Origin: Candidatus Marinacidobacterales bacterium
GTDB taxonomy: Bacteria > Acidobacteriota > Vicinamibacteria > Marinacidobacterales > DATDRI01
Direction: 5' to 3'
DNA length: 64,000 nt
NCBI GenBank assembly: GCA_965219415.1
Contig: CBDCNP010000002.1
Coordinates: 3,200,001 to 3,264,000 of the forward strand
Below the pieces are notes generated by a model, which did not search any database, had not been told where the DNA came from, and was given only the letters and a program-made list of their open reading frames with translations. Below, piece after piece: positions 2,421 through 57,226 of this stretch. Position numbers and translations under genes: made by a program. Position 1 is the stretch's first letter. Every line of letters begins with the position of its first letter.

Positions 2421-2422
2421 CT

Positions 2423-8718: not shown

Positions 8719-8789
8719 TATGTTAAATTCACCGTTTCGAATGTACCCACTTAACTCGGTCTGGAACGAGTAACCAAAAGTAACAACTG
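8719..8789. repeat. Non-coding 71-bp element, copy A
   Basis: Ungapped 56/71 match to 11165-11235; last 21 nt identical (agtaaccaaaagtaacaactg). Confidence 0.85.
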
Positions 8790-8852
8790 ATAGATCTGGG
8801 GCAGAGCTTCCGGGACTAAACCCGCGGGAGGGTGTTATCCTAGTGAAAACCC

Positions 8853-9751
8853 GTGTTTTCCAAATTACTGAGGGACCAGTCCGGCAGGATGGTCGAGCCT
8901 CAATTATTTGTCGCGATCATGGGCATTGCAGCCGCGATCATCGTTCCCCAACTGTTGGCGCGAGGGGAAGCGCGAGATCAGGATCTCTCGGCACAATGTA
9001 TCAAGAACCTCTTTCTCATCAAGGAAGGGGCTGACCCCTCGGCTCTTGCTTGCCCGATCTCGGAGCTGGCTTACACGCCCGAGACCCGCGATGGGGTCCG
9101 AGTCCTATCCTGCGCGGATCCGGGGAACCATCTGCGTTTCGACCTAAGCCTCGTCGAGCGCGGCGAGTCATGGGAATTGCACTCCGGGCTCCCCGAGCAC
9201 CCCCACCGCCCGGTGGGGTTGTCGAAATAGAGGGGGCTCGTACCTTCTTCGAATATCGGCCGGAAGAGGTCACCATCGTAAACTCACCACCGCCGCCGCT
9301 GGAGCGTTACCTTTTCACCCCCCTCATCGTCGTAGTCCTCTTCTTTGTGTTCCTGATGCCCGCCAAATGGATTGGGTCCGCCCTTTTATCAGATTTTTCA
9401 GAAAACACACTTGGCCAATCGCTCGTCTTGTTTGTAATCTTTCTGCTACTCCTAGCACCCGGTACCATCCTTATCGCGTGGACGATCCACGGCGCCATCC
9501 ACCGCGACGAGATCGTCCTCTCCCGCGAAGATAAATCTTTGAGCATTCAAGTCTACGATCTGGGCAGGGCTTTCAGAGAAGCCGAGCCCATTCCGTCGGT
9601 GCGCGGAGTGTTTCCGGTTTTCGGAGACGACCGCTACCGCGTCGTTGCCATTTACGAAGACCAGGGGCAGATGCGACACCGGACGCTCTTCAAGTCGTCT
9701 GGATCCGGCTGGGAGGTCTCTTCCCTATTGAATCAACTCTTTGCCCTTTAA
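8853..9751 (+). pseudogene. Membrane protein with degenerate prepilin-like N-terminus; frameshift near 9205
   Basis: RDQSG|RMVEPQLFVAIMGIAAAIIVP...AQCIKNL N-terminus; the second frame carries two TM helices. Confidence 0.5.
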
Positions 9752-11041
9752 GTCTCGTCGTCGAGGGTGAGGAGCCAGATGTCGGCTTCGGTAGTCTCTA
9801 TCGTGAAGTAGATTGTTTGGCCGTCGGGAGTGATGCTGCAGTCCAGAACACGATGTGGTTTTACCGAAAGCAGCTCCCGGCGATCCTTGGTCCGGCTATC
9901 GATGAGCTCGATCGTCGTCGCGGTCCACGCCAGCCATGAATCCGTATCGGCAACCCAGTCGAAGGGTCTTCCATCGTCGCTCAGCCTTTCGTAGCGTTGA
10001 GACTCGAAGTCATAGGTGACGACACCGCGGCCAAACTTGCCAGCAAGGACGCGATCCCCGGCCAAGCGACGACCGTCCCCCGACCAGCTTCTGACGAAGA
10101 GCCTCTCGTTGCTGTCATCCAGAGGTGGTAAGGGTTGCGGTTCCTGCTCGCTCCAGTCCGTGTCGACGCGGAAAACGTAAGGCTGTACCTCTGGAAAGAG
10201 TGTGTAAGCCATGAGTGATCCATCGCGCGACCACACCGGTAGGTTCGCGTCTCCACTCGTTTGGGTCAGCTGTCGCATTCCACTGCCGTCGGGATGGATG
10301 GTCCAGATCTGCCCCGCCTCGGTCTTGGTCACTGTAGGGGCGTCACTCCCCACCACTTTCCTACGTCCTTGTCCCAGGATGGCGAGGCCGAAGTCGAGGA
10401 TTTTGAGCTGGCCTTTGTCGCTCACCATGAGATTGTCGGGTTTTAGGTCGCGGTGGGTGATGCCTTGCTCGTGGGCGGAGCTCACCGCGTCGGCCAGGGG
10501 AATCGCAATCTCGAAGAACTGCTTCAAGGGAAGGCCCTTGTGCGCAATCAACTCGGATAGATTCCGGCCCCGGACGAGCTGCATGGTGATGAAGGGCGTA
10601 CCCTGGTCTTCCTCGATCGAGTGAACGGTCACGATGTTGGGATGATCGAGGGCGGCGAGCGCCTTGGCCTCACGCTCGAACCTTCCAAACCGCTCGTGAT
10701 TCTCGGTCAGTTCGTCCGGGCTTGATAGCGATCTCCCGGTCGAGCTTCGTGTCTCGCGCGCGGTAGACCTCGCCCATGCCTCCCGCACCGAGGAGGTCGA
10801 CGAGTTGGTAGTGGCCGAGCTCGGTTCCGGGGGCTAGGCTCATACGATTCGCCGCGGGCGGATGCCCAAGGAAGCTATTTGCCTCGGCCGCGTCATGATT
10901 TTTGAGAAGTTCTTCGACCTGCTCTCTTAACGCATCCTCTCCCGAGCAGGCTTGGTCCAAGAAACCGGGCCGCCTCTCAGGAGGGAGACTGAGCGCCGTC
11001 TCAAATAGCTCTGCGATGCGATCCCAAGAGTCCGGCATCAA
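9748..11041 (-). pseudogene. Ser/Thr kinase-PD40 protein (kinase 2), frameshifted and internally deleted
   Basis: GAGGMGEVY, shift near 10720, HRDLKPDN, DFGLA, then TEAGQI fused directly to WTIHPDGSG. The 3' 41 nt (9749-9789) are identical to kinase 1 (4485-4525). Confidence 0.85.
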
Positions 11042-11114
11042 GTGACTTGCATCTTGATCCCTGACAATGAGGGAGCTGTCTTACGCGTTATGAAACTCAC
11101 CGTACCCTTGGTGA

Positions 11115-11145
11115 AAAATAGCCCGGCACGAAGCGAAAAGTCAAA
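11115..11145 (-). promoter_or_regulatory. Putative sigma70-type promoter of kinase 2
   Basis: 30/31 nt identical to 7152-7182. Confidence 0.55.
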
Positions 11146-11164
11146 GCGCAGTGCGGAGGCAAAC

Positions 11165-11235
11165 TACGGTAGATTCGCTGTTTCGAATCTGCCCAGATTA
11201 CTGGGGCCGGACCCAGTAACCAAAAGTAACAACTG
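11165..11235. repeat. Non-coding 71-bp element, copy B
   Basis: See copy A; contains inverted repeat tactggg-N6-cccagta. Confidence 0.85.
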
Positions 11236-11243
11236 TTTCCCGC

Positions 11244-12074
11244 CTACTTCTTACTTCTCGGATTCAGCGCGTCGTTCAATCCATCCCCAATCAGATTAAT
11301 TGCCAGCACCGTCATCAATACCGCCAACCCCGGAAACGTCGCGATCCACCAGCCGCTTCGCAGATAAGCCTGAGCATTCCGGAGCATGTAACCCCAGCTC
11401 ATGACGTTGGGATCCCCGAGGCCGACGAAGCTGAGCGAAGCCTCAGCGAGTATCGCGTAGCCAACTTGAAGCGTCGCTACCGCCACAACCGGCGGGATGG
11501 CGTTAGGGAGAATCTCCTTGAACGCGAGACGAAGATTCCCGGCGCCTCCGAGACGGGCGGCGTCGACGAACTCCATCTCCTTCCACGTGAAAAACTCTGC
11601 ACGTAGGAGGCGCGCGATCGCCGGCCAGGCGAGAAGCCCAATCACAAGGATCAGGTTCTGGATCTCGGCACCGACGAAGGCGACTACCAAGACCGCGAGA
11701 AAAAACGGCGGGATGGTCATGAAGATATCGGTCACTCTCATGATGAGGCCGTCGACTCTGCCGCCGTAGAATCCAGCGATGGCGCCGAGGAAAACTCCTA
11801 TCGCCACCGACGTCAGAGCGGCGAAGAGTCCCACCGCGATCGACGTCCGGGCTCCGTAGAGAGTCCCGCTCATCACGTCCCGCCCCATGTTGTCGGTACC
11901 CATGAGGTGTGAACCCTCGGGGGCGAGAAAGGGCTCGCCCCCGAGCTCGAACGGCTCGAACGGTGCCAATACTGGCGCCAGAAGCGCGGCAACGATCAGC
12001 AGGATGCCGATCGACAAGCCCGCCACCGCAGGGCGATTCGATTTGAACTCACGCCAAAGAGACGTCTCGATCAT
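11244..12074 (-). CDS. Peptide/nickel ABC transporter permease (DppC-like)
   Basis: HLMGTDNMGRD, EFVDAARLGGA EAA loop, AEASLSFVGLG. True start MIETSLW overlaps the dppB-like stop (ATGA). Confidence 0.92.
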   Translation of the reverse strand: MIETSLWREFKSNRPAVAGLSIGILLIVAALLAPVLAPFEPFELGGEPFLAPEGSHLMGTDNMGRDVMSGTLYGARTSIAVGLFAALTSVAIGVFLGAIAGFYGGRVDGLIMRVTDIFMTIPPFFLAVLVVAFVGAEIQNLILVIGLLAWPAIARLLRAEFFTWKEMEFVDAARLGGAGNLRLAFKEILPNAIPPVVAVATLQVGYAILAEASLSFVGLGDPNVMSWGYMLRNAQAYLRSGWWIATFPGLAVLMTVLAINLIGDGLNDALNPRSKK

Positions 12075-13045
12075 GGTGACGTGATCCTCGGGTCCAACCG
12101 GAAGTAGAGCAGGTCGGTGATGAGGTTGGTGACGATGACGGTCAGCGAGACGACGAGGAAGATTCCGCTCAGGAGCGCGTAGTCCCGCGACAGAACCGCA
12201 CCCAACATCAAGCTTCCGATTCCCGGCCATGCAAAGACGATCTCGATGAGGGCCGACGCCGCGAACATGAAACCGATCTGGTGGCCGAAGAGCGTGACGA
12301 TCGGAATCAGGGCGTTGCGGAGCCCATGACGCATCAGGAGCGTTCCCTCGGCAACCCCCTTGGATCGCGCCGCGGTGATGAAATCCATAGAGAGCACGTC
12401 GATCATGCTGGAGCGGGTGAGCCTCGAAAAAAGGGCCATCTGGTGAAAACCCAGAGTGAGCGCGGGGAGTAGGAGGTGGCTCAGCAAATCCCAGAGATAC
12501 GCGAATCCGGTTGAGTCGGAGCCGATGGTGGTCATGCCCGACAGCGGAACGCCGCTTCCGGAAAAGACCAGGATCAGGATCATCCCAGTCCAGAACATGG
12601 GCTGCGAATAGCCCACCAGCGAGATGATCGAGATCGCATTGTCCCACCGGGAACGGGCCTTCTTGGCCGCGACAACCCCAAGGGTGATCCCGGCACCCGC
12701 GGCAAGCAGAAGCGCCGTGAATGTCAGGAGCAGCGTATTGGGCAGCCGGTCCAAAACGACGTCTAGAACCGGTTCTTGAAAGAACGTCGAAAACCCGAGA
12801 TCGCCGACCAGGAGCTTCTGCATATAGATGATGTATTGGGTGTGGAGCGGCTGGTCGAGGCCGAACTCGGTCCGTATATCCTGGTAGTACTCCTCGGTGA
12901 TCGAGGCCCCTCCGATGAAGTAGACCGGATCGCCGGGCGCGAGGCGGCAAAGGAGAAAAACCAGCGTCAGGATGACGAGGGTGACCGGAATGATCTGCAG
13001 CAACCGCGCGGCCACGTAGCGGCCGAGTTTCGATCGAACCGACAA
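12071..13045 (-). CDS. Peptide/nickel ABC transporter permease (DppB-like)
   Basis: PGDP, FGLDQPL..QY, DFITAARSKG, RHGLRNALIP, DPRI. Confidence 0.92.
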   Translation of the reverse strand: MSVRSKLGRYVAARLLQIIPVTLVILTLVFLLCRLAPGDPVYFIGGASITEEYYQDIRTEFGLDQPLHTQYIIYMQKLLVGDLGFSTFFQEPVLDVVLDRLPNTLLLTFTALLLAAGAGITLGVVAAKKARSRWDNAISIISLVGYSQPMFWTGMILILVFSGSGVPLSGMTTIGSDSTGFAYLWDLLSHLLLPALTLGFHQMALFSRLTRSSMIDVLSMDFITAARSKGVAEGTLLMRHGLRNALIPIVTLFGHQIGFMFAASALIEIVFAWPGIGSLMLGAVLSRDYALLSGIFLVVSLTVIVTNLITDLLYFRLDPRITSP

Positions 13046-13079
13046 GGCCCGAGCATCTTACCAAAATCTGTGGAATGCT

Positions 13080-14669
13080 ATGGTCGCTATGGTCACGCGG
13101 ATGACGCAGCTAGCTCTCGTCGCGTTGCTGGTGCCTTCGGGGATGTCGGCGCAGACACCTGAGCGAGGCGGCGTGCTCAACGTGGCTCTGAGTAGCCCCA
13201 TTCAGTCTCTGACCGCCGCCACGACCCATCATCCGGATCTGATCGCCGCCGGTCCCCTGTACGATGCGCTTTTGACGTACGACCGAGACCTCGAACCCAA
13301 GCCCTGGCTCGCCAAGTCCTGGACGATCTCGGAAGACGGCCGCCGGTACACTTTCGAGCTGGAGCGGAACGTGACCTGGCACGATGGAAGAACATTTACC
13401 TCGGCCGACGTGAAGTTCACCATCGAGGAGATCCTTCGCAAGTACCATCCTTCGGGGGCCGTCTTGTGGGCCAACGTTGACACCATCGAGACTCCGGATC
13501 CCAGTACCGTCGTTTTCAACCTCGCTCGACCGTCGGCGGTCTTCATCAAGATTCTCGGACCCTACCACGCCAAGATCATGCCCAAACATATCTACGAGGG
13601 TAAGAGTTTTCTGAGGAATCCCGCCAACCGTCGACCAGTCGGAACCGGCCCCTTCAAGTTCCGTGAGCATCGCCGCGGAAGTTACCTCATCGTCGAGAAA
13701 AATCCCGACTACTGGAAGAAGGGTCTACCTTACCTAGACCGCATCGTCAGCAAGGTGGTCCCCAACGCCGCGGCCCGCATCGCGGCCCTCGAGAACGGTG
13801 AGGTCGATCTTATCCCCATTTACACGCCGGTCCACGAGATCCCGCGCGTCGAGAAGAATCCGAAGTTCGCGGTAACCGCGGGGGGTTACGAGGGCGGCGC
13901 CGGGGTTTGCATGCTCAAACTCAATTTGCGGCGAAAACCCTTGAGTGATCTAAGAGTGCGGCAGGCTTTGAGCTACGCCCTCGACAAGGACAGGATCCAC
14001 AAGCTCGCCGGTTATGGCTACGGACGTCGCACCGACGGTTTTATGCCCCGGGGCGTTGGCGATTGGTATAGCGAGGACCAGCCGACCTACGCGCACGACG
14101 TCGAAAAAGCCAATCAGCTATTGGACCAAGCGGGTTTTCCAAAGGGTGCTGGACGCGTGCGATTCAAGCTCCAGACCGAGCTCCCCGCCGGCCATCTCAC
14201 CCACATCCGAAACTGCGAGGTTGCGAAGGAGCAGCTGAAGAAGGTCGGCATCGACATGGTCCTCAACCTGCGCGACGTGGGGAGTCACCTCGACATCGTT
14301 TACGACAAATGGGATTTCGACATTGCTGTGGCCGGCCACGGAATCCAGTTCGATCCGGCCCTCGGAGGTGCTCGCTACTTGACTACCGAGCAGGCCGGCA
14401 AGGTCCCGTTCACCAACGGCGGGGGTTACAGCAGCCCGCGCGTCGACGAGCTATTTGCAAAGGTCAGGATCGAGACCGATCCCGACATTCGCCGAGAGAT
14501 GTTCTACGAGATCCAGAAGATTCTCGCCGAGGATATTCCGGTGATTTGGCTCTACGATTTTCCGAACCCCACGGCGTTTAACCGTGATCTCATCGGTATT
14601 CCCATGGGCCCCTCGAGCTGGGGCGAAAACTACGCTGCGGTCGGATGGAGAGGGGGCTCGCGCAAGTAG
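13080..14669 (+). CDS. Peptide/nickel ABC transporter substrate-binding protein (family 5)
   Basis: PWLAKSWTISEDG..YTFEL...WHDG..FTSADVKFT, PVGTGPF, NPDYW; signal peptide. Confidence 0.92.
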   Translation: MVAMVTRMTQLALVALLVPSGMSAQTPERGGVLNVALSSPIQSLTAATTHHPDLIAAGPLYDALLTYDRDLEPKPWLAKSWTISEDGRRYTFELERNVTWHDGRTFTSADVKFTIEEILRKYHPSGAVLWANVDTIETPDPSTVVFNLARPSAVFIKILGPYHAKIMPKHIYEGKSFLRNPANRRPVGTGPFKFREHRRGSYLIVEKNPDYWKKGLPYLDRIVSKVVPNAAARIAALENGEVDLIPIYTPVHEIPRVEKNPKFAVTAGGYEGGAGVCMLKLNLRRKPLSDLRVRQALSYALDKDRIHKLAGYGYGRRTDGFMPRGVGDWYSEDQPTYAHDVEKANQLLDQAGFPKGAGRVRFKLQTELPAGHLTHIRNCEVAKEQLKKVGIDMVLNLRDVGSHLDIVYDKWDFDIAVAGHGIQFDPALGGARYLTTEQAGKVPFTNGGGYSSPRVDELFAKVRIETDPDIRREMFYEIQKILAEDIPVIWLYDFPNPTAFNRDLIGIPMGPSSWGENYAAVGWRGGSRK

Positions 14670-14682
14670 CGCTTTGCGCTAG

Positions 14683-15321
14683 CTACTCGAGGGGAGCCCG
14701 AATCTCGCGGATGGCGAGCTTTGCTTCTCCCGCCATATCGCCGGCCCACTGATCTTCCATCTTCTCCTCGAGAACGGGGATGAAGACGGACCCTGCCGCC
14801 CCCTCCGCTCGCATCCCTGAGATGACACCCATCTCCAACGAGTAGACCACGAACCGCATGGCGGTTTCCTCGGTGGCCGCAAACGCCGCCGCCTGGATCT
14901 CCTCACGGGTGGCGTTCTCGAAACCGCCGAAGATGAAATCCTTGATCGCAAACTTGTCGTAGTCGGTGAGGATGGTTTGCCCGGACACGAGATTCTTCAC
15001 CTCGAGGTTGGCGTGTACGACTCCGGGATCGTAATCTCCATCGTTCGTTTCCCGCGTTATCTCTCTCTCGAAGCTCAAATCGATCTCGACAACGGGCTTG
15101 GCCCCCTCTTTGGCCGGGGAGAGGTAGTCCAGATAGGCTCCCCACAGGTTCGAGCCGTTGATGAACTGTGCGATCTTTTCTCGGTGCTCATACGGTGCGG
15201 CGACTCTGCAGCGCGGGTCGAGCTTCTTGCTCGTGCAAGACAAGGCGGGGAGAAGCCCTATGGCGAGAACCACTAGAAGCGAGAGGAACCTTACTCGGTT
15301 CGAGCCGATCGGGGTGGACAT
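14683..15321 (-). CDS. Hypothetical lipoprotein
   Basis: ATG with upstream GGAGG; hydrophobic signal ending LSC (lipobox-like). Confidence 0.55.
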   Translation of the reverse strand: MSTPIGSNRVRFLSLLVVLAIGLLPALSCTSKKLDPRCRVAAPYEHREKIAQFINGSNLWGAYLDYLSPAKEGAKPVVEIDLSFEREITRETNDGDYDPGVVHANLEVKNLVSGQTILTDYDKFAIKDFIFGGFENATREEIQAAAFAATEETAMRFVVYSLEMGVISGMRAEGAAGSVFIPVLEEKMEDQWAGDMAGEAKLAIREIRAPLE

Positions 15322-15425
15322 CGGCAACCTCCTTGTTTGTCGTCGAGCGGAAATGGCTCGGCGGACCGCCAAACGAATCGGTGTGAGATTGGAATCGGGA
15401 TTTCTTGTAAACAGTCTAACACGGG

Positions 15426-16904
15426 TTAGGCGAAGTAAGCCAGGTAGAAGCCCAAGACGCCGAATACGGTCAACGCGACGCCCGAAACGACGAGGCCGGT
15501 CACGAGAAAAGGACCCATCCGGAGGCCTTTTGGCAGGTGCAGCCGATCGCTCCCGAGCATCGCGAAGCACCACATCCCACAAGTGAACGTCGCGGAAATG
15601 ATGGCCGCGGGCGTGACCACGGCGACGGGATCTAGGTTCCACCACAAAAGGATCAAGCCGACGACGCCGCAGACCGCGCAAGTCCACCGTCGGAAAACGC
15701 CGAGCGGCACCGTCTTCCACCTCGGGATAGCAGCAGTGAGACACTCGCAAACCGAACGGGAATAGAGCTCGTACCCTCCGTACATCGTCCCGAAGAACGC
15801 GAAGAAGATCCCGGTCTTGTAAAGGAATCCGAGAAGCCATTGGACGCCCGGGTGTTGGCTGTCTCTGACTAGGAACGCCTCCTGTTCGGTTATGAGCGCA
15901 CTCGCTTCGGGGACGATCTGATTCGGATGGAGAATTGCCGCGCCCAGCGTCGCGAAGAACAGGGTGAACGTAATGATCGCTGCGAACGAAATGCCAACAT
16001 CGATCAGGGGTGCTCGCAACCAGGATCGCCCGCGAGCCAAGTTATCGGGAGACTCGTCGACTCCATCCCGGAGTCGATCGTGCCGGCCGACGGAGCGAGC
16101 CAGCAATCCCCAGCCTTTCTCGCGCAATGTACCGAGATAGCCGAAGTAGTCCACCGTACCACCACCGATAACGCCGAGGTAGACGATGACCTCGACCCAG
16201 GGGTCCCGAGCGGCCAGCGTCGAGGTTTCCATGATCCAAGGCTCGTATTGAGGAATTCTTGGTAGGAAGATGCCCTGAACCAGGGCTATCAGGTCCGGGC
16301 TCGATGCGACGACGGCGACGAACATCGAGAACAAGAGAAGTCCGACGACGAAGGTCTGGACTCTTTCCAAGAACCCGTATGTCTGATTCAGAGTGAGGCC
16401 GATGGCGACGAGGATATAGAGCGTTCCCCAGATACGTGCGAACGTGTCGAATCGCACCTGCGACTCGAGCGCGGCCCCGTCAGCCGACTCGGAAGTCACG
16501 ACGATCCCGACGATCGAGTTCGTGAAATCGCCTAGTATCCTCGGTAACCCTCCGCCCAGGAAGAGTGGCATGCAAACCAAAGTGAGGACGGTCATGACCG
16601 GAACGAACCAACCTCGCAGCCCCGGAAGCTGAGCCCAGCTCTCGAGGGGGTGCCTCCCGGTCAACGTAATGAAACGAGCACCGCTATAGACCTGGACGAA
16701 CTTGATCGCGGCGCCGAGGACGAAGCACCACATCAGCGTGTATCCGAAGATAGCGCCGCCACGAGACGCGAAGATCGTCTCACCGTTACCGATCGTCACC
16801 GACGCGATGATGGCACCGGGACCGAAAATCTTCAGTGTCCCCAGGAAAGAGCGATCACGAAGCTCGGCGGAAAGGCCGGGGTATTTGGCGGGAGGGCCCG
16901 ACAT
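15426..16904 (-). CDS. Nramp-like family transporter
   Basis: GPGAIIASVTIGNGETI..SRGGAIFGY.LMW N-terminal motif; about 11 TM segments. Confidence 0.75.
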   Translation of the reverse strand: MSGPPAKYPGLSAELRDRSFLGTLKIFGPGAIIASVTIGNGETIFASRGGAIFGYTLMWCFVLGAAIKFVQVYSGARFITLTGRHPLESWAQLPGLRGWFVPVMTVLTLVCMPLFLGGGLPRILGDFTNSIVGIVVTSESADGAALESQVRFDTFARIWGTLYILVAIGLTLNQTYGFLERVQTFVVGLLLFSMFVAVVASSPDLIALVQGIFLPRIPQYEPWIMETSTLAARDPWVEVIVYLGVIGGGTVDYFGYLGTLREKGWGLLARSVGRHDRLRDGVDESPDNLARGRSWLRAPLIDVGISFAAIITFTLFFATLGAAILHPNQIVPEASALITEQEAFLVRDSQHPGVQWLLGFLYKTGIFFAFFGTMYGGYELYSRSVCECLTAAIPRWKTVPLGVFRRWTCAVCGVVGLILLWWNLDPVAVVTPAAIISATFTCGMWCFAMLGSDRLHLPKGLRMGPFLVTGLVVSGVALTVFGVLGFYLAYFA

Positions 16905-16921: not shown

Positions 16922-18181
16922 TCAGGCCCCGTGGAACCCGCAGGCGTTGAGCACCGTGAGCGCATAAACCTTGGTTTGTTTCACGAGCTCATCGATCGTA
17001 AGAAATTCGTTCGGTTTGTGCACTCTCGAAATGGAGCCCGATCCGTACGTCACACCAGGAATCCCGCGGGTCAGAAAGGCCTCGAGCTCTCCGGTACCTC
17101 CGATGGGAGAAAAACGGGCTTCGATGCCGATCGATTCCGCCGCGCCCCGGATCGCGGTTACGATGGGCTCGTCTTCACTAACTTCTATCGGCTGTCTCTC
17201 GCTCAAGACGTCGACGCTCCCGACACGGAAGTCCGGATCGTTCTCTTTGATGTCTTCGATGATTCTCTCGAGCTCGTCCATGAACCTCTGGGTGGAGTAG
17301 GGCGCCGAAACGCGAATCCCCAAGCCCACCTTGCAGGTTTTCGGTATGTCTCCGAACCGTTCCGCAACGCCCTCGATGGCGCAAACGTTCAAGCTCTCTC
17401 GCCCCTGCACGGGACCTTCCTTGAGCTCGACTCGCTCCAAAGCGTCGATGAACTTTAACGCCTTTCTGATGGCGTTGAGATCTTGCCGATTGGCGACGTG
17501 ACCGACTTCGCCCACGATCTCGAGCTCGATGAGAAGCCTTCCGTTGAATGAGCCACAAATGCGCTCGAGTCCGGAGGCTTCCCCGTTGATGACCACATCG
17601 GGCAGGGGATAGCCCGCCTCTTCGAGGCCTTGCTCCACCAGGAACGTCATTCCGGGCCACTTGAGATGCTCGAGGCGCCCTTCGTCGTCCACCGAGGCAA
17701 CGAGCATCAAGCTGCCCTTCAGCCCGATCCCCAGCTCTCGGATCGCCTTGGCCACGAAGACCTGCGCCGCCAGTGCGCACTTGGCGTCACATGTGCCTCT
17801 CCCCAAGACTTTATCATCTTTGATTTCGGCGCCGAAGGGGTCGAACCGCCACTCGTCGGGGTCCCCCACACCGACGACATCCATGTGAGTGCCGATCATC
17901 AGGATGGGTTTCTTTTCGCTTCCTTCTATGAGTGCCACGACGTTGGGTCGCGGATGCTCCAAACCCACCTGTTCGACCCTTTCCTTCGGGGCGGAAATCA
18001 GATCGGCGTGCACTCCGACGGCGCCGAATTCCTGCCTCATCCTCTGAGCGATCGTCGCGTACTCGCCGCGAGGGAAAACACTGGGAATGCGGACGAGCTC
18101 TCGGAAGAGACTTAACAACTCGTCTCGATGATGGTCCACGAACTCGACGACTCTTTTCCGCGTCGCGCCTTCTCCAGACAT
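16922..18181 (-). CDS. M20 (ArgE/DapE-like) metallo-hydrolase, paralog a
   Basis: [30 protein letters not shown]. Confidence 0.85.
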   Translation of the reverse strand: MSGEGATRKRVVEFVDHHRDELLSLFRELVRIPSVFPRGEYATIAQRMRQEFGAVGVHADLISAPKERVEQVGLEHPRPNVVALIEGSEKKPILMIGTHMDVVGVGDPDEWRFDPFGAEIKDDKVLGRGTCDAKCALAAQVFVAKAIRELGIGLKGSLMLVASVDDEGRLEHLKWPGMTFLVEQGLEEAGYPLPDVVINGEASGLERICGSFNGRLLIELEIVGEVGHVANRQDLNAIRKALKFIDALERVELKEGPVQGRESLNVCAIEGVAERFGDIPKTCKVGLGIRVSAPYSTQRFMDELERIIEDIKENDPDFRVGSVDVLSERQPIEVSEDEPIVTAIRGAAESIGIEARFSPIGGTGELEAFLTRGIPGVTYGSGSISRVHKPNEFLTIDELVKQTKVYALTVLNACGFHGA

Positions 18182-18311
18182 CAGTGGGCTCACTGAGAGT
18201 CCTCGCATCTTATCAGAACGACTGCGCGGCCGGTAAAACTTGCTTCGAGAACTTCTCTAGAGTACTTTGCCTGCGACAGAAACTTCTTCCGCACTGGCGA
18301 GTTGTCGAAGA

Positions 18312-21953: not shown

Positions 21954-22949
21954 CTAACGCAACAGCAGCGGCAGTACACTACTCTCGAACGGCGAAATGA
22001 CCGCCGTCCAGACCACAAACACGGCAAGGATGCTGAAGAGCGCGACTCGCGCCAGCTTCTGCCGCGGGCTACTCTCGACCCGGGCAAGCTCCAGCAGACG
22101 ATCCCATGGAATCCAAAACGCATAAGTCAGAAAAAATGTGCGGAAGGTGGCCCTCATGGTGACCGCGAATCCTACCTGCATGAAGAAGAGGCACGGGAGG
22201 ATCACGATCCGGGCACGACGGCTGAAGAGCGTGAGCGGGGAGAGAAGCTCGAGAGCCAGGGCGCCAATGGACAGCACCTGACCGAGGAATACATGGCCGG
22301 CCAGCCAGTGAGAAAGAGGGCCCAAATCGATGACCTGCACGGTGAGGGCGAGGTTATCCGACAGAAACCACTCGGGCCCGCCCAGGCGAAGCTTCGCAAT
22401 GCCACCGGCGAAGAAGACGGACACGAACACCAACTGCATCAATCGCACCGGCCAGGCGTAGGTCCCGCGCGCCACTTCTTTAGAGACGTAGTCGGTGCGG
22501 CTTCGCAGTCGTCTCACCAGCCTGTCGAGCGAGAAAGCGTCTCCACAGCGGGACATCGCGAAAATACCGAACATGATGAAGAAGTGCCCTTCCGCTGGCT
22601 CGACGAAACCGAAAGATTGACGCATTCCGAAAAGATAGAGTCCGCTGAGAAAAGTGACGGCGAAGGCGGCCCGCGAGAAGAGGCCGATGAACCCAAGGGT
22701 CAAGGCAACAAAGAAAATGCGCTGGAGCGACTGAACGAACGGGGTCGACGGTATGTCGATTCCGAGCGCATGTATGAGCGGAACCGGCAACCAGAATGCG
22801 TCGGAGACTTGGAGCCAATGCGAGAAATCCCAGGACAGGTGAGACCAGAGGAACAGACCCGACACCAGCGCCCGTGTGAGCCCCAGGTTCTCGGGCCCCC
22901 ACGGTTGGAACCAGAGCTGGTTCCAGACTCTACGGATCCTCGTTGACAT
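21954..22949 (-). CDS. HTTM-like (vitamin K-dependent carboxylase/SdpB-related) membrane protein, copy 2
   Basis: LG..R, CGDAFSLD, WPVRLMQ...VFFAGGIAKL..GG.EW, LELL; multiple TM helices. Confidence 0.65.
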   Translation of the reverse strand: MSTRIRRVWNQLWFQPWGPENLGLTRALVSGLFLWSHLSWDFSHWLQVSDAFWLPVPLIHALGIDIPSTPFVQSLQRIFFVALTLGFIGLFSRAAFAVTFLSGLYLFGMRQSFGFVEPAEGHFFIMFGIFAMSRCGDAFSLDRLVRRLRSRTDYVSKEVARGTYAWPVRLMQLVFVSVFFAGGIAKLRLGGPEWFLSDNLALTVQVIDLGPLSHWLAGHVFLGQVLSIGALALELLSPLTLFSRRARIVILPCLFFMQVGFAVTMRATFRTFFLTYAFWIPWDRLLELARVESSPRQKLARVALFSILAVFVVWTAVISPFESSVLPLLLR

Positions 22950-23514
22950 TGTCATTGGGTACGACCTCGAAAATGAGCTCGCGGTGGGGGAGTGAGGGTG
23001 CACGGGTCATCGCGTCGGTCAAGGAGAGGGTGGCAGGATCCGAGAAATCCCGCTTCATAAGGTAGAGCCTCATCCCAACCAGAGAGGGTTCGTCGGCCAT
23101 TCGGTTCTGGTTGTATCGATCCTTGATGTTGAGCAAGGCTTTGCGTACCAAGAGCTCGTTGGCTTTGGCTCTCGCCCTCAGATCGGCGACACCGGGCTTC
23201 GCCGGCCCTCCCGCAAACATGGATCCCGACCGTCGATTCCCCAGCATCTTGTTGAACGCCATCATCATCGAGACTGGGTACTGGGGTGTCACGTGCCTTG
23301 ACTCCACGACGTGCTCTTTGCCATCGCCGTCAACACCGACTGGGAACAGAGCGAGGTGTGCCGCCACGTCCCCCCTCGACCAGTAGGTGGACCAAGAGCT
23401 CACCGTATGAGCAAACATCGGATAGTTGTTGAAGGGCCAGGGCTTCGCGTCGAGACCGATTGCAGTGAGGATGCTCGCTAGAACGATCAGGATGGTCGCG
23501 TTCGCCTGCCACAT
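22930..23514 (-). CDS. Membrane-anchored partner protein (WPFNNYPMF motif), copy 2
   Basis: N-terminal hydrophobic helix; clear paralog of 24535-25110. Confidence 0.7.
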   Translation of the reverse strand: MWQANATILIVLASILTAIGLDAKPWPFNNYPMFAHTVSSWSTYWSRGDVAAHLALFPVGVDGDGKEHVVESRHVTPQYPVSMMMAFNKMLGNRRSGSMFAGGPAKPGVADLRARAKANELLVRKALLNIKDRYNQNRMADEPSLVGMRLYLMKRDFSDPATLSLTDAMTRAPSLPHRELIFEVVPNDNVNEDP

Positions 23515-23542
23515 GACTCGTTTATACCTTATCCGACGAGGA

Positions 23543-24538
23543 TCAACGCAACACCCAGGGAAGAACCGCCGTCCAGCCCACGAACGTGGCTAACAGGAGG
23601 GCGAGTACAAGCCGGGCCAGCGTCCTACGCCTCGGCCGCCCGCCGCGAGCCATGTCGAGGAGGCGATCCCAGGGAATCCAAAACGCGTAGGTCAGAAAAA
23701 ACGTCTGAAAGAGTGCGCGCATCGTCACCGCGAAGCCTATCTGGAGTAGCAACAAGCACGGAACGATCACGATGCTGGCACGCCGACTGAAAAAAGCGAC
23801 GACGGAGAGTAGCTCGAGCGTCACCGCCCCTGCGCCGAGGATTTGGCCGATGAGTACTTTCCCGGCGATCCAGTGTGAGAGCGGCCCCAGGTCGATGACC
23901 TGAACGGTGAGTGCGAGGTTGTCCGAGAAGATCCAGTCGAGGCCGCCCAGACGCATTTTCCCGACGCCACTCGCGAAGAACACCGATACGAAGAGAAATT
24001 GCATGAGACGCACCGGCCAGGAGTAGCTTCCCCGCTGCACCTCCTCGGCAACGTGGTTGGGTCCGCCTCGCATCCGCCGGATCAAGCTATCGATGGAAAA
24101 CGCGTCCCCGCACCGCGACATGGCAAAGATGCCGAACATGATGATGAAGTGTCCTTCCGCGGGAGCGATGGAGCCGAACGATTGGCGCACGCCGAAGACA
24201 TAGAGCCAAGTGAAGCACGAGATCGCGAAGGCGGTTCGCGTAAACAAGCCGACAAATCCGAGTGTCAGCGAGACGAGGAAAATGCGCTGCAGGAGCCTAA
24301 TGGCGGAAGCCGAGGGGATGTCGAGCCCGAGCGCGCGAAAGAGAGGGATCGGTATCCAGAACGCGTCGGAAACTTCCGTCCAAACGGAGAGATCCCACGA
24401 TAGATGAGACCAGAGAAAGAGGCCCGACACCAGCATTCTAGAGAGGCCCAGATTTTCGGGCCCCCAGGGCTGGAACCAGAGGTTGTTCCAGACCCTGGTC
24501 AACGAGCTCAGACGCCGGGTGAGGGCTCGACTCATCAT
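23543..24538 (-). CDS. HTTM-like membrane protein, copy 1
   Basis: Paralog of 21954-22949 (shared WFQPWGPENLGL, PAEGHF, SDNLALTVQVIDLGPLSHW). Confidence 0.65.
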   Translation of the reverse strand: MMSRALTRRLSSLTRVWNNLWFQPWGPENLGLSRMLVSGLFLWSHLSWDLSVWTEVSDAFWIPIPLFRALGLDIPSASAIRLLQRIFLVSLTLGFVGLFTRTAFAISCFTWLYVFGVRQSFGSIAPAEGHFIIMFGIFAMSRCGDAFSIDSLIRRMRGGPNHVAEEVQRGSYSWPVRLMQFLFVSVFFASGVGKMRLGGLDWIFSDNLALTVQVIDLGPLSHWIAGKVLIGQILGAGAVTLELLSVVAFFSRRASIVIVPCLLLLQIGFAVTMRALFQTFFLTYAFWIPWDRLLDMARGGRPRRRTLARLVLALLLATFVGWTAVLPWVLR

Positions 24539-25110: not shown

Positions 25111-25238
25111 GCCTGAGAAGCTCTTGTTCCCTTTTTCCCTCTCCCCTCTGGGGAGAAGGCCAGGCGTCAACTAGATGTCGAGCTCATGATGGACGCCAAA
25201 ACAGCGTGTAGCTATCAATCAACGTAGCCAGTGAGGGG

Positions 25239-26498: not shown

Positions 26499-26624
26499 AC
26501 CGTATACCCCTCTGGAATCGCCCATTCTATCAGAAAGTGCCCGGCGGTGGTGGTTTTCGTGCAATATTCAGATTTCTAGGATGGCTCGGGGAGTCAGTAT
26601 TGTTGTCCCGCCGAGGCCGCGGCT

Positions 26625-52122: not shown

Positions 52123-52168
52123 TTCAAGTGCCCTCCAGCGGCCGGTATTATAGTCTATTCGAGAAGGG

Positions 52169-52209
52169 AACTCTGTCCGGGCCGAGGCGCTTAAGACTTT
52201 ACTTGAGGT
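52169..52209. repeat. Non-coding 41-bp element, copy C
   Basis: Ungapped 31/41 match to 57186-57226; core related to 8753-8772 and 11199-11218. Confidence 0.7.
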
Positions 52210-52215
52210 ACCGAA

Positions 52216-53134
52216 TCATTGGGGGTAGTTGATGCGGCGTAGTAGCTCGCCGAATCTTGGGTCCGAGCGCAAGCCGTCAAAGGCTGGATCCACTCCGAGG
52301 AAAGATGCCATACTTGTTCTCTCATCTAGCGCCTTATTGATCCATTCGAACCCTTGATCCGGTTTGCCCAGCTGGGTATAGAGCCGTGCCATATTGTAAG
52401 CTCCACCCCCCATTCCAAATTGAGGCGGTTTCTGAATCAGCTCGCCCAATAAACTTTCTGCTTCGGCTTTCTTGCCCGCCACCGCGAGCCCCCACGCGAG
52501 CTCCGTTTTGTATGTCGCCGTGCCGTCGGAAAGGTCTAGCGCTTCCCGAAACTCGGCGAGGGCGTCTTGGTACTGACCGTCAAGGGCGTAAGCTCGTCCC
52601 AGCATGGCATGCCCGAGAGCGCCGCCCGGATCGAGATCGACAACTTGCCGGGATTGCTGGATCGCACGCTGGTAATCCCGTGCCATCATGTAGATCATTG
52701 CTACGTTGGCCTTCAACGGAAGTACCAACGGATCTAGCTCCTCGGCCCGTCTGATCATCGCGATGGCCATCACCACGTTCGACCTTGATTCAGAGTGCGT
52801 TACATGCTCGACGCCATCGATGGAACCGATGAAGCGATAACCCCCGGCGGGCTACTGTCTCTATGTAGCGGGGCCTCTCGGCGGAATCACCGAGCGCGAC
52901 GCGGAGCTTGCCGATCGCGGTGTTAAGGCCCCTTTCGAAATCCACGAACGTGTCCGCCGGCCAGAGTCTCTCGGCGAGCTCTTGACGACCCACCATTTCG
53001 CCGGGTTGCTCTAACAGGATTTCCAGAATCTGAAAGGGTTTTTCTTGGAGCTTGATCTTGTGGCCTCGCTTGAGAAGCTCGCCGGCGCGCAGATCCACCT
53101 CGAAATCGCCGAATCGGACGGGTCGATTTGCCAC
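52216..53134 (-). pseudogene. wHTH (OmpR/PhoB-type)-TPR regulator copy 1; frameshifted and internally deleted
   Basis: wHTH nearly identical to copies 2 and 3; C5 instead of C4 near 52843; TM and TolB-like segment missing; ends DP.FD.LRSDPRF. Confidence 0.82.
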
Positions 53135-53157
53135 TTACCTCAACTCGTAAAAGGACG

Positions 53158-54996
53158 TCACTCCAAGAGTCCCAGCCGCCGGCCAAGATCCACGTATCGC
53201 GGATCGGAGCGAAGCGGATCTAAGGTGTGATCGACCCTGTACCAGGTTAGAAACGGTGTCTTCTCACGGTAAGCTTGTTCCAGCCACTCGAACGCCTTGT
53301 CTTTGTCGCCCAAACCGGCGTAGATGGCGGCTCGATGGAGGGGTGAAACGTAATCGCCGCGCTCGGACTTCTCCTCGAGCCCCTTCAGAATGGCCAGCGC
53401 CCCTTCTCGTCTCCCTGCGACGCCGTACGCATAAGCCAGCCGCCAACTCATGCCGGAGCCTTCGAAGGCTTTGATGGCTTCGTCGAGGCGACCTCGCACC
53501 AGGTACAGATCCCCGAGGTGCCAGTAAGCGAAGGGGTGATCGGGATAAAGCTCGATGGTTTGCCGCGCTTGTTTCTCGGCACGGTCGAGCTGTCCCACAC
53601 CCAAGTAGCCCCTCGCCATGCCGGCCCTCATCACCGGATTGTTCGGGTCGTTCATCAAGGCGCTCTTCCGGTGCTCCAGACTTTCTTCGTGGCGCTCCAT
53701 CCCGCTCAGGAACCACGCGTAGATGAGGTGCGCCGTGCCGTCATTGGGATCAAGCTCGATGGCTCGTTTGCGGGCCCGCTCCGAACCTTCCCAGTCCAGT
53801 TCGATCACTTTCAGCGCCCCAAGTACTGTTTGCGCCTCGGCGAGGCTGTTGTCGAGCTCGAGAGCTTTTGTGACCGCTGCCTTCAAATCGATCAAGACGT
53901 CTGCTGGCCGAGCATAACCATTGAAGGTGATGAACGCGTAGGCATGTGCGATTCCCGCGTAGGCGGGCGCATAGGAGGGATCGACTCGGGCCGCGCCTTC
54001 GAAGAGCTCTACCGACTTCCAAAGGCTTTTCTCGTCTCGCTGTGCGACAAAGAATCGCCCCCTCCAGTAGAGTTGAAGGGCTTCGATGTTGTCGGTATAA
54101 TTCTTGGTAAGAGCGGCTCTGTCTTCCCGGGTCAGTGTGGAAACGAGTGCAGACGCCACCCGTTCGGCGATCGTGTCCTGCACAACGAAAATGTCCGTGA
54201 AGTCCTCATCGAACGTATCCGCCCACATCGGCGTGCCGTAATCGACCCGAAGGAGTTGGACGGTCACGCGGATCGTATCCTCGTTCCGCTACACGGTTCC
54301 CTCTAGCACCGCGTCCACGTGCAGCTCTCGCGCCACTTCGATCGAGCTGCCTCGTGTTTCAGTGTAGTCTCGCACGGCGCTCGTGGGTCTTACCGTGATG
54401 CGAGAAACATTGCTGAGCTTAGTGATAAGAGCGTCCGCGAGGCCGAGCTCGAGGTAGATATCCTCATCGTCAGGGCTGATGGACTTGAATGGAAGCACCG
54501 CAATGGACTGGGGAACAGCCGCGCTGATATCACGGCCTCGATCGAATTCGTCGAACGGGAGGATGGCTCTCTGCTCCCTGAGCCATAGATAGCCGGCCAA
54601 CGACAAAACGATCGCGCTTGCCAAAAGGGCAATGGTGGAGGATTTAGGGAATGGCCTCGGCGTTGAGCCATCTGCTTGTTGCACGTTGCCGATGAACCGA
54701 TAACCCCGTCGAGCGACCGTCTCGATGTAGCGCGGTTTTTCGGCGGAATCACCGAGCGCCGTGCGAAGCTTTCCGATAGCGGTGTTGAGGCCCCGTTCGA
54801 AATCCACGAACGTATCGTCGGGCCAAAGTCGCTTCGTGACCTCCTCGCGGCTGACCATTTCGCCGGGTTGCTCTAACAAGATTTCTAGAATCTGAAAGGG
54901 TTTTTCCTGCAGCTTGATCTTGTGGCCGCGCTTCAGAAGCTCGCCGGCACGCAGATCCACTTCGAAATCGCCGAATCGGACGGTGCGGTTTGACAC
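53158..54996 (-). pseudogene. wHTH-TM-TolB-like-TPR regulator copy 2 with in-frame TAG at 54289-54291
   Basis: RFGDFEVDL..GEL, YIETV.RRGYRF, SIAVLPF, EGTV*RNEDTIRVTVQL, TPRs. Confidence 0.88.
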
Positions 54997-55001
54997 TTAC
55001 C

Positions 55002-57119
55002 TCAACTCGTGCCCGGATCGGGGCGGGAATGCTTCTCAACGAGCTCCCGGTAGCCGGGATGTTCGCGCAATGAATCCCAGAGTGGATCCAACTCGAGGTG
55101 GGGTACTGACAGGATGGTGCCCGAGGGGATAGAGAGAAGGGTGTCGAGCTCCTCCAATGCGGCCTCGTGATCTCCGAGCATCGTGTAGATGAGCGCCAAG
55201 TTGTGCACGGCTCCCCGCCCGCGAAGGATGTTGACCTCAACTGGAGCTAATTTCACGGCCTCCTGACCTTCTTTCACGGCTTCTTTCGCGCGGCCGAGGC
55301 CGGCATGGGCGATCCCGAGGGCACTGTGAATGCGCGGATCCTTCGGGCGCTCCTCCAGCTCTCTTTCGAGAACCACTACCGCGTCTGCGTAGGCGGAGTC
55401 CGCCCGGCCCGTCTCGCCCAGCAAATCGTAGGTATTAGCGATGAGCAGCGCCTTAGGGTAGAACCAGGTCGCGAGATTAAAGGCTTCCTGGGGGGCGGAG
55501 TTCAATTTGCCTAGGGCTTCCTCGATCCTTCTTTCCATGAGCAGCTGGCGCCACCAGATCACCACCGCCACGTCCTGGCTCTGATCTGGCAGCGATGTGA
55601 GCGCATCCCGAGCTCCTTCTAAGTCACCCTTCGCCCAGCTGTTAATTGCGATATATACGTGTGTGAAGAACTGGCCAGGAGCGATCGTGAGGAGCAACGC
55701 GAGGTAGCGATCGGCCTCGGCGTAACGTCGGAGTTGGCCTAGGTTGACAGCGATGAAAGTAGCCAGAAACTCGTTTCGTGGGTCGAGCTCGTAGGCTTGC
55801 TTGGATTGTTCCAGAGCTTCTTCGAGGTGACCCTGCGCTTGTTTCACCATAGCCATGAGAAGAGCGATGCGCGTTCCGTTGGGTATGCCGTTCGCGGCGA
55901 TGGCCAACTGCTCCAGTGCGCGCGGATAATCTTTCCCCTGGTGATAAATAAGCCCCTGCGCCAGGTGTGCCTCCGCAAGATCGGGCTCGAGATCGAAAGC
56001 TTTCGCTACCGCCTGTTCTGCGAGCTCGAGCCTTTGTGGTGAGGGATCGTGACGGTAGAACCATGTGTGAGCGACCGCTAGCTCGGCATAGGCTTTGGCG
56101 AAGCCGGGATCGAGCTCCACGGCCTTCTCTAGCGACTCGATCGCGAGACTACTCTCCTCCACCTGGGCTACTCCCGGCGACCAAAGATGGCTCAGGCCGC
56201 GGACGTAGGCCTGATAGGCATCTGGATCGGCCGTCGGAGGGCTGTCTAGGGATTTCTGCTCGCTCGCGACTAGGCTGATTCCGAGCTGTTCGATGACGCC
56301 CCTAGCGATGTCCGACTGAACACCGAAGACGTCGTCCGTCACTCCATCGTAAGGCTCCGACCAAATCTGCGTGTCATCGGATATCCGGATGAGCTGGGGC
56401 GTGACGCGCACTTGACCCTCTTGCCATCGGACGGTGCCTTCGAGGATGAAGTCGACGCCAAGCACTTCGCCGATCTGCTTGGTGCCCTTGTCAGAATTCC
56501 TGTACTTGTTAGCACTGTTTCGTGAGATCACGCCGATCGCTCGAACGATCGCCAAGCGGCTTGTGATCTCTTGCGTCATCCCGTCGGCGAAGTAGTGATC
56601 CTCGGGTTGTTCGAGGTTCTCGAAGGGGAGAACGACGATCCTGGGGCGCGTTGACGTTGGGGTCGGCGCAGGGGCGCGCCCGAGGAGTAAGTAGGCCGCC
56701 ATGAGTGCAACGACTGTGGCAGCCACGACAGCAACGAAGGCGGTCTTACGGTTTGAGGATGGTCTCTCTGAGAGACCAGCCGGTGGCTCGATGGAACCGA
56801 TGAACCGATAGCCCCGGCGGGCCACCGTCTCAACGTACCGGGGCTTCTCGGCGGAATCACCGAGTGCGGTGCGGAGCTTTCCGATCGCGGTGTTGAGGCC
56901 CCGCTCGAAATCCACGAACGTGTCCGCCGGCCAGAGTCTCTCGGCGAGCTCGTGACGGCTGACCATGTCGCCGGGTTGCTCTAAGAGGATCTCTAGAATC
57001 TGAAAAGGCTTTTCCTGGAGCTTGATCTTGTGGCCGCGCTTGAGGAGCTCGCCGGCGCGCAGATCCACCTCGAAATCGCCAAATCGAACGGTGTCGGAGG
57101 GCTCGACGGCAGGTCTCAT
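55002..57119 (-). CDS. wHTH-TM-TolB-like-TPR membrane-anchored regulator (CadC/ToxR-like) copy 3, intact
   Basis: 705 aa; wHTH, TM helix, IVVLPFENL, YFADGMT.EI, EGTVRW, TPRs, LDP.WD.LR.HP. Confidence 0.9.
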   Translation of the reverse strand: MRPAVEPSDTVRFGDFEVDLRAGELLKRGHKIKLQEKPFQILEILLEQPGDMVSRHELAERLWPADTFVDFERGLNTAIGKLRTALGDSAEKPRYVETVARRGYRFIGSIEPPAGLSERPSSNRKTAFVAVVAATVVALMAAYLLLGRAPAPTPTSTRPRIVVLPFENLEQPEDHYFADGMTQEITSRLAIVRAIGVISRNSANKYRNSDKGTKQIGEVLGVDFILEGTVRWQEGQVRVTPQLIRISDDTQIWSEPYDGVTDDVFGVQSDIARGVIEQLGISLVASEQKSLDSPPTADPDAYQAYVRGLSHLWSPGVAQVEESSLAIESLEKAVELDPGFAKAYAELAVAHTWFYRHDPSPQRLELAEQAVAKAFDLEPDLAEAHLAQGLIYHQGKDYPRALEQLAIAANGIPNGTRIALLMAMVKQAQGHLEEALEQSKQAYELDPRNEFLATFIAVNLGQLRRYAEADRYLALLLTIAPGQFFTHVYIAINSWAKGDLEGARDALTSLPDQSQDVAVVIWWRQLLMERRIEEALGKLNSAPQEAFNLATWFYPKALLIANTYDLLGETGRADSAYADAVVVLERELEERPKDPRIHSALGIAHAGLGRAKEAVKEGQEAVKLAPVEVNILRGRGAVHNLALIYTMLGDHEAALEELDTLLSIPSGTILSVPHLELDPLWDSLREHPGYRELVEKHSRPDPGTS

Positions 57120-57185
57120 GGCTGGCCGCTGATTACGCCCAATTTACACCCGGAAGTCGTCTGCGTCGAGCTTGCGGCTGGAAGC

Positions 57186-57226
57186 TACTTGGTCTGGACC
57201 GAGTAGCTTAAAATATTACTTGAGGT
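57186..57226. repeat. Non-coding 41-bp element, copy D (overlaps 28-bp palindrome 57182-57209)
   Basis: aagctacttggtc-tg-gaccgagtagctt; 31/41 match to 52169-52209. Confidence 0.75.

Follow-up and report, generated by a model that had tools for sequence, protein, structure and literature searches.

A four-copy palindrome in Candidatus Marinacidobacterales DNA: probable recognition sites of a widespread ParB-like/HNH protein

A stretch of 64,000 nucleotides (nt) from Candidatus Marinacidobacterales bacterium (contig CBDCNP010000002.1, positions 3,200,001 to 3,264,000; hereafter the window) carries four copies, A to D, of a short palindrome. They form two direct-repeat pairs, A/B and C/D, each of which brackets protein-coding genes. 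What are these palindromes for? The original prediction took them either for recombination-site-like boundaries that move signalling genes, or for a shared operator or RNA hairpin upstream of minus-strand genes. Comparison with other genomes places them in a family whose copies flank, and lie inside, the gene of a protein with a predicted ParB-type helix-turn-helix (HTH) domain and an HNH nuclease domain. The four copies are probably orphaned or decaying recognition sites of this widespread protein, the scars of a selfish element. They are located as follows (positions are those of the window).

8719..8789, plus strand: copy A block, 71 nt common to B; its 17-nt tail (8773-8789) is identical to that of B
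8753..8772: copy A core, a 20-bp palindrome scoring 25.7 bits
11165..11235, plus strand: copy B block, 71 nt, with a further inverted repeat (11168-11193) that has not been conserved in A
11199..11218: copy B core, variant G5-C16
52169..52209, plus strand: copy C, a decayed core (52169-52188) plus a tail of the C/D type
57182..57226, plus strand: copy D, core 57186-57205 within a 28-nt palindrome (57182-57209), plus a tail of the C/D type

The repeats are as originally described. Recomputed, both alignments are gap-free, with 56/71 identical positions between 8719-8789 and 11165-11235, and 31/41 between 52169-52209 and 57186-57226. The common core starts at 8753, 11199, 52169 and 57186 in A, B, C and D, and its positions 5 and 16 read C-G, G-C, C-G and T.G, respectively. 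Seven of the 10 core pairs are Watson-Crick pairs in A, nine in B, six in C and eight in D; copy C is the weakest, decayed copy. The palindrome is 20-28 nt long, and its family has the form WACTCGGTCCGGACCGAGTW. The A/B and C/D pairs belong to one family, because matrices that leave one pair out still link both: among about 128,000 window positions, a 37-nt matrix from C and D ranked A 3rd and B 4th, and a matrix from A and B ranked D 3rd and C 16th.

With a position weight matrix built from 13 copies in other genomes, the highest-scoring positions of the window are those of D, A, B and C, in this order, at 28.2, 25.7, 23.3 and 14.7 bits. The copies thus score better than shuffled DNA: the best score in 60 Markov-resampled windows was 9.2 +/- 2.5, none of these windows had a hit at the score of B, and hits at the score of C came at 0.05 per resampled window. 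The density is four copies per 64 kb, and the same matrix found no fifth copy in the window, the next best position being 26317 (11.2 bits, within a gene). All four copies are intergenic, as had been claimed, and lie upstream of minus-strand genes, at distances of 47, 67, 158 and 1622 nt from the gene starts. Neither a terminator at copies A-D nor a tRNA or tmRNA in the window was found.

Likeness ends exactly at the end of the tail in each pair. The tails are subtypes within the family and not private to the window pairs: the tail of D is identical at 15/19 positions to the flank of a mini-element at locus L020 (null 1/2000), and the A/B tail matches the non-orthologous loci L015 at 12/13 and L026 at 10/13 positions (null 5/2000 at 10 or more). 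A second short palindrome lies 38 nt to the left of core A (8698-8715) and is kept in the orthologous locus L013 described below (about 10060-10077).

To obtain loci in other genomes, a 22-nt degenerate pattern derived from A, B and D, with position 5/16 left free, was run against 185,579 species genomes. The scan gave 30 loci, the source genome not among them. Fifteen loci are named as Acidobacteriota (10 genomes, five of them twice), the lineage in which the palindrome is enriched; with the gene-bearing loci L009, L018 and L023, and L016, which is orthologous to L009, they make up 19 family loci. The other 11 look like chance hits. Position 5/16 forms a Watson-Crick pair in 18/19 family loci against 2/11 of the others (p 3.5e-5), and in 14/15 against 6/15 when the loci are split by record title alone (p 0.005). 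It is paired in all 31 distinct copies (22 C-G, 3 G-C, 3 T.G, 2 T-A and 1 A-T), and 0/500 shuffles, which do not control for relatedness, reach the covariation score at this position.

Solo copies border metabolic genes, and three of them lie between convergent genes (L011, L019 and L020; the neighbours of the copies in L011 and L019 both have Pfam hits). The genes neighbouring family copies have no common function. The supposed link with signalling genes is therefore not borne out elsewhere, where copies adjoin metabolic genes, a winged HTH (wHTH) domain occurs in 0/19 family loci and a kinase domain in one (L029). Some loci have arrangements of their own, such as an extended perfect palindrome with inverted tails in L012 (9990-10035) and a tandem doublet with copies 51 nt apart in L019 (5088-5160). 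Marinacidobacterales also has a second abundant dispersed repeat family (L015, 10650-11670 and 18730-19220; L026, 13600-17550).

The candidate partner of the palindrome is the nuclease gene. Its family profile matches 11 of the 30 loci, all of them among the 19 family loci and none (0/11) among the others, and in 9/30 loci the matched copy falls within the gene, intact or as a remnant, or is no more than about 100 nt away. Copies occur upstream, in the linker and at the 3' end. The upstream copies stand about 170-270 nt before the aligned start and, in L018, L023 and the mini-element of L029, 35-45 nt ahead of a TTGAC box. In L018 and L023 the gene has a copy on either side, the two forming direct repeats, and L022 has a doublet on the left and a degenerate copy on the right; no terminal inverted repeats were seen in the element comparisons. 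The frame in which the linker copy is translated differs between L018 and L014/L021, which indicates a constraint at the DNA level. Several derivatives of the element were identified: L004 has three gene fragments in about 260 bp, L016 shares an identical 53-nt stretch with the 3' end in L009, both L020 and L022:18641 have a left end joined to a right end with no gene, and L029:2930-3260 has an internal copy fused to the 3' flank.

The protein is composed of a predicted ParB/KorB-type HTH domain, a linker, a segment resembling a ribbon-helix-helix (RHH) domain and an HNH nuclease domain, in this order. Pfam HNH was found in 93/99 family members, and DUF222 (PF02720) in 13/99, weakly (E up to 0.1, best 0.0012); DUF222 is also present in 21% of one Atlas cluster. 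The RHH-like segment has weak Pfam hits in 3/99 members and no fold match among those listed. A ParBc (CTP-binding) domain is present in 0/99 members, the protein beginning with the region matched to the DNA-binding domain. The family comprises 7,569 clusters at 50% identity (E up to 1e-30), the nearest Atlas clusters being mostly Myxococcota and Bdellovibrionota, and its profile has no sequence match in the PDB. In plasmids and phages, the nuclease is matched by the HNH part only, in two plasmids and one phage; PHROG matches are also to the HNH part only, PADLOC gave one weak REase_II match (E 0.0025, HNH part) among three proteins, and block B has only chance-level matches to plasmids and phages.

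Upstream of the nuclease gene in L014, L018, L021, L023, L027 and L029 there is a TTGAC box at about 190 nt, and an A-run with TATAT stands just before the start codon; this suggests two promoters and a leaderless message. In L029, a Phd-PIN toxin-antitoxin pair lies inside the 3' end of the nuclease element (10480-11800), and that end is duplicated; a toxin-antitoxin module also adjoins copy A. Some homologues have repeated linker insertions, which may derive from a sequence like the palindrome at 8698-8715.

Protein and palindrome vary together. A palindrome-compatible linker peptide (at most two mismatches) was found in 94/120 homologues, compared with 19/120 control proteins and 3/120 shuffles. 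The peptide variants correspond to double changes that preserve DNA symmetry: pair 7/14 is G-C in 86 homologues, T-A in 28 and mismatched in 5, and pair 6/15 is G-C in 80 and C-G in 21, with 5 mismatched combinations of those bases and 13 other or unassigned. Among the 114/120 homologues with a parsable motif, the C6 variant accompanies A, P or S at residue 70 (33/34 vs 5/80), the T7-A14 variant accompanies R104 (27/28 vs 2/86), and A16 occurs with W70 (3/6 vs 0/108). Members of the C6 group resemble one another no more than they resemble sequences outside it. On a fast tree made without the key columns, 10 and 8 changes are required for the two variants, and supported branches force 3 and 4 of these. 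The residue-70 link was replicated in an independent set (17/18 vs 6/17, p 3e-4), and none of the independent pairs for residues 70, 104 and 117 goes in the wrong direction. The same pattern is seen in real DNA: L022 (A70) carries the C6 variant both within its gene and beyond it, L027 (W70) has T5-A16, a variant also carried by the solo copy L011 of the same genome, and the H70 genes of L009, L014, L018 and L021 have C5-G16.

Structure models (pLDDT 81 and 90) are consistent with a DNA-binding role for the N-terminal domain. The top four matches of this domain alone are the ParB-parS structure 6s6h (Z 7.2, root-mean-square deviation (rmsd) 3.4, 98 residues aligned), KorB (7.0, 6.4) and Spo0J (6.0). 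The full model matches 6s6h with Z 8.9, rmsd 5.3 and 119 residues aligned, and ParB/Noc proteins are the top four in Foldseek, but with E 0.59 and no E below 0.001 for either model. The C-terminus matches the HNH enzymes GVE2 (Z 6.6, rmsd 3.0, 75 residues aligned) and McrA. The linker is predicted to be disordered, and residue 70 is the first of the helix that follows the turn in the predicted HTH. In the consulted parts of one ParB study, the specificity residues R173, T179, A184 and G201 lie within 162-207 (PMC7383237); by alignment end points only, residues 70 and 98-104 of the nuclease fall in or at the edge of this region.

Because the palindromes flank the nuclease gene, sit inside it and change in step with it, they are probably the recognition sites of that enzyme. 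It is likely that a dimer reads the palindrome as double-stranded DNA through the ParB-type domain, as ParB does on parS. The following step is less secure, and it is only possible that the HNH domain nicks beside the site and that host repair then recombines site-bearing segments. Under such a mechanism, the ParB-type dimer would bind the duplex palindrome, the tethered HNH domain would nick next to it, and host repair would recombine segments that carry the site. The gene would be copied or dropped as a unit flanked by direct repeats, leaving solo sites and mini-elements behind, and bystander genes between two sites would be gained or lost now and then, such as the kinase and wHTH blocks of the window. 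The missing partner of the four copies is most likely a ParB-like-HTH/HNH protein encoded elsewhere. The four copies differ in variant and are in part broken, as old scars would be.

The genes around the copies include three paralogues with wHTH and tetratricopeptide repeat (TPR) domains and two kinase genes, and are compared here with L013, an orthologous Ca. Marinacidobacterales locus.

4484..7131, minus strand: kinase 1 (Ser/Thr kinase, PD40 repeats), frameshifted; missing from L013
7152..7185, minus strand: duplicate promoter upstream of kinase 1, 32/34 nt
7208..8652: two vapBC-type modules, one on the minus strand (RHH 7596-7847, PIN 7208-7621) and one on the plus strand (RHH 7897-8226, PIN 8227-8652)
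8769..8789 (= 11215-11235), plus strand: 21-nt stretch identical in A and B, where the L013 sequence turns from resembling A to resembling B
8790..11214: segment bracketed by A and B, missing from L013
8853-9230, plus strand: weakly pilin-like open reading frame (ORF)
9050-9751, plus strand: membrane-protein ORF of 233 amino acids (aa)
9748-11041, minus strand: kinase 2, internally deleted
11115..11144, minus strand: sigma70-like promoter of kinase 2, 54 nt from the B core; consensus match only
52216..57119, minus strand: three wHTH-TPR paralogues between C and D
55002-57119, minus strand: wHTH-TPR gene 1, intact
53158-54996, minus strand: wHTH-TPR gene 2, split by an in-frame stop
52216-53134, minus strand: wHTH-TPR gene 3, internally deleted

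L013 is about 87% identical to the window over 1-4479 and 11175-15427, and has about 200 bp in place of 6.7 kb of the window. It contains one site, and the genes bracketed by A and B are missing. Through the core this site differs from A at one position and from B at five, and it is B-like after the tail; the switch thus lies within the 21 nt that are identical in A and B. Such a single-site allele is what the reading as recombination-site-like boundaries anticipated, and that reading is supported for A/B; for C/D, no empty site came to light. The A-B event may have gone in either direction, since L013 also keeps two remnants of the plus-strand vapBC module beside its site and has therefore lost DNA by deletion.

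Some gene assignments were amended. Kinase 2 does lie between A and B as described, the pilin call is weak (NCBIfam E 0.1), and the 233-aa membrane-protein ORF had been overlooked. C and D do bracket three wHTH-TPR genes, of which the second is split and the third internally deleted. The absence of a recombinase nearby was upheld: a domain scan of 206 of the 207 window ORFs of at least 90 aa, all but the open ORF at the window edge, gave neither a recombinase nor a transposase domain. We infer that the frameshifts in many window genes are long-read error.

Several observations concern the history of these genes. A 34-nt promoter-like block is common to kinases 1 (7152-7185) and 2 (11115-11148) and adjoins B, and the two vapBC modules stand between A and the kinase 1 block. 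The last 83 nt of the kinases (4485-4567 and 9749-9831) are 90% identical, likeness ending at the stop codon. Kinase 1 abuts the start of a hydantoinase gene, where L013 has a TATAAT-bearing spacer. In a PIN gene there is a short tandem duplication at about 8493-8537, with the reading frame apparently restored. Between C and D (52216-57119), the wHTH domains have 85-90% DNA identity and the rest of genes 1 and 2 about 41% protein identity, and one 17-nt junction recurs before genes 2 and 3; this pattern in the sequence suggests that domain shuffling or gene conversion may have shaped these genes. Elsewhere in the window, a pair of membrane-protein genes without a Pfam match is duplicated at 70% identity (21954-25170), and paralogous M20 peptidases lie at 16922-18208 and 25239-26564.

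Several results weigh against the proposed pairing of palindrome and nuclease. The profile search found no copy of the nuclease gene in the window, nor was the gene found in the examined DNA of the Marinacidobacterales loci L013, L015 and L026. Beyond the core, the window flanks have no match of at least 30 nt to eight gene-bearing elements. Among the retrieved loci there is no orthologous C/D locus and no C/D empty site. There is some circularity in that copies A, B and D supplied the pattern by which the loci were retrieved, and the site variants of the 120 homologues were inferred from linker peptides, not from DNA. The T7-A14/R104 link was not replicated (3/6 vs 7/29, p 0.32), in a replication set where 35/150 more distant representatives, those with a parsable linker motif, were scored. 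The tree-corrected independent-pairs test is underpowered (3 and 4 supported pairs, p 0.5 and 0.125), and the internal site of L029 (H70), A5-T16, is an exception to the residue-70 rule. For a helical domain, the N-terminal fold matches of Z 6.0-7.2 are middling, and the Foldseek E value is 0.59. Finally, the unrelated deletions in L013, seen in its toxin-antitoxin remnants, and the presence of the A/B tail subtype at unrelated loci mean that the A-B difference could be an ordinary repeat-repeat deletion or a tandem duplication.

This last point leads to the strongest alternative, which retains an appreciable chance: the family palindrome would have no part in the rearrangements, and A/B, and likewise C/D, would have arisen by tandem duplication of kinase, promoter and site, or the L013 form by slippage loss between repeats. 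One old duplication would fit the identities of 68-74% between the kinases, 32/34 between the promoters and 79% between the elements, and L013 has other deletions. On the other hand, likeness in both pairs stops exactly at the tail end, the switch in L013 adjoins the palindrome, and junctions at palindromes are also found in L029 and L020. For A-B alone it is a fair account; it is compatible with the binding claim, and the two are not exclusive. Distinctly unlikely is that the copies are working operators, through which the ParB-like/HNH protein or a host regulator such as a wHTH-TPR protein would control the neighbouring genes, nuclease activity being incidental. It is true that a position upstream of minus-strand genes is common to all four copies, that the 54 nt between B and a -35 box resemble the 35-45 nt upstream of the nuclease gene, and that the fold match KorB is titled a transcriptional repressor in its PDB entry; self-repression of the nuclease gene via its own sites is plausible. 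Against control of neighbours stand the copies between convergent genes (L011, L019 and L020) and at gene 3' ends, the functionally unrelated neighbours, the 1.5 kb that part A from its promoter and the existence of gene-less mini-elements. The wHTH version of this idea, put forward originally, receives no support from related loci, where the domain occurs in 0/19. Operator and SOS-box consensus motifs were compared with the palindrome by eye, and none fitted.

Readings based on single-stranded DNA, on site-specific recombinases or on the protein itself are less probable again. A single-stranded hairpin of the REP kind, for which an HUH tyrosine transposase would supply the mobility and the nuclease gene a frequent landing place, seems improbable. 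Size and palindromy fit REP, as far as the consulted parts of PMC8266576 describe it; pairing is compensatory, the three non-Watson-Crick 5/16 pairs are all T.G as aligned, and D folds well (z -4.95). However, GTAG was found within 6 nt on either strand in 0/34 copies and CGTC in 1/34, the loop would have just 2 nt, and neither A nor C folds. Neither the 72 neighbouring ORFs nor the window yielded an HUH transposase, and the residue-70 coupling would be unexplained. Slightly less credible is that the coupling is internal to the protein, the linker peptide folding back on the domain. The 120 homologues are indeed known from peptides only, but the observed double changes are the very ones that leave the DNA symmetric, as at pair 7/14, non-coding copies in L022, L023 and L011 carry the same variants, and the predicted disorder of the linker does not favour such folding. 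Least credible of all are cassette sites of the dif or attC type for XerC/D or an integron integrase. The 11-mer at 8718-8728, in A, equals the XerD arm consensus, toxin-antitoxin modules adjoin A and an empty site exists. This 11-mer is present in A only and not kept in B or L013, so that the XerC/D proposal is not supported; there is also no XerC-type arm, no RYYYAAC...GTTRRRY pair 40-140 nt apart at any of the four copies, and no integrase in the 206/207 window ORFs scanned.

A role as an RNA hairpin was not supported either, since there is no Rfam match and A and C fold no better than shuffles. At gathering score, Rfam gave 0 matches in the window and eight loci, and 8600-11400 gave only E values above 5. 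Two RNA-based candidates for the nuclease gene were rejected. The leaders upstream of the gene align with 45% identity and 7/7 have z between -1.84 and +0.97, which speaks against a guide or leader RNA; an RNA-guided HNH enzyme of the IscB type was set aside because the IscB score is 24.8 against a cut-off of 175, for the HNH part only, and the leaders are unstructured.

With the palindromes read as recognition sites of the ParB-like/HNH protein, a very large nuclease family of unknown function gains a candidate DNA target, a fold assignment and residue-level predictions. Natural variants of site and protein would form an orthogonal set of DNA-binding domains, like ParB/Noc, and the pairing offers a route into what DUF222-HNH repeats do. 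More tentatively, we propose a new class of mobile element, in which a ParB-type/HNH protein with its own 20-bp palindrome at both gene ends and inside would spread by nick-induced recombination, seed solo sites and mini-elements, and move kinases, wHTH-TPR regulators and toxin-antitoxin modules. If this is true, thousands of homologues would carry a readable protein-DNA code, and the role of the DUF222-HNH repeats may be explained; the system would be categorically new if nuclease-driven movement were shown. If DNA is moved, this would be a REPtron-like system with different chemistry, and could help to explain the kinase and wHTH-TPR expansions and the variable islands in these genomes. A literature search of titles and abstracts, mostly without subscription papers, found nothing on this palindrome or protein-site pair.

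Among known systems, homing enzymes generally leave their own allele uncut; in the present family, by contrast, sites are found on the flanks of the nuclease gene and also within it. Free-standing HNH homing endonucleases also join HNH to a DNA-binding module (PMC5714182, whose consulted parts do not mention DUF222), and they share the selfish cut-and-repair spread that is inferred here. As in insertion sequences and their miniature derivatives, gene-bearing and shrunken gene-less versions occur in one genome (L022 with L020 and L022:18641; L029), but the ends are palindromic direct repeats, terminal inverted repeats were not seen and there is no DDE or HUH transposase. The REP13E12/DUF222-HNH repeats of mycobacteria are described, in the parts consulted, as multi-copy genes and recombination hotspots with no defined function (PMC13061034, PMC10589994). 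They share HNH with the present family, which may be a distant relative; the DUF222 match of 13/99 members is weak even at its best (E 0.0012), and the consulted parts of the same sources do not mention a cognate palindrome. ParB-parS, Noc-NBS and KorB-OB give the best, if middling, fold matches for the N-terminal domain; they too have a palindromic site and, to judge from part of PMC7383237, switch specificity at a few residues. The match covers the DNA-binding domain only and leaves no room for an N-terminal CTP-binding domain; the protein is fused to HNH, the 20-bp site has another sequence, and no ParA was found among the neighbouring ORFs scanned. In architecture the system resembles the REPtron, in which, according to the parts consulted, a nuclease-type gene (RAYT/TnpA-REP) is flanked by short palindromes that are also dispersed without the gene (PMC3733652, PMC8266576). 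The same arrangement is found here, but with no GTAG tag, with HNH instead of an HUH-tyrosine enzyme, with a further copy inside the gene, with flanks that are direct repeats, and with a ParB-type domain that points to recognition of duplex rather than single-stranded DNA.

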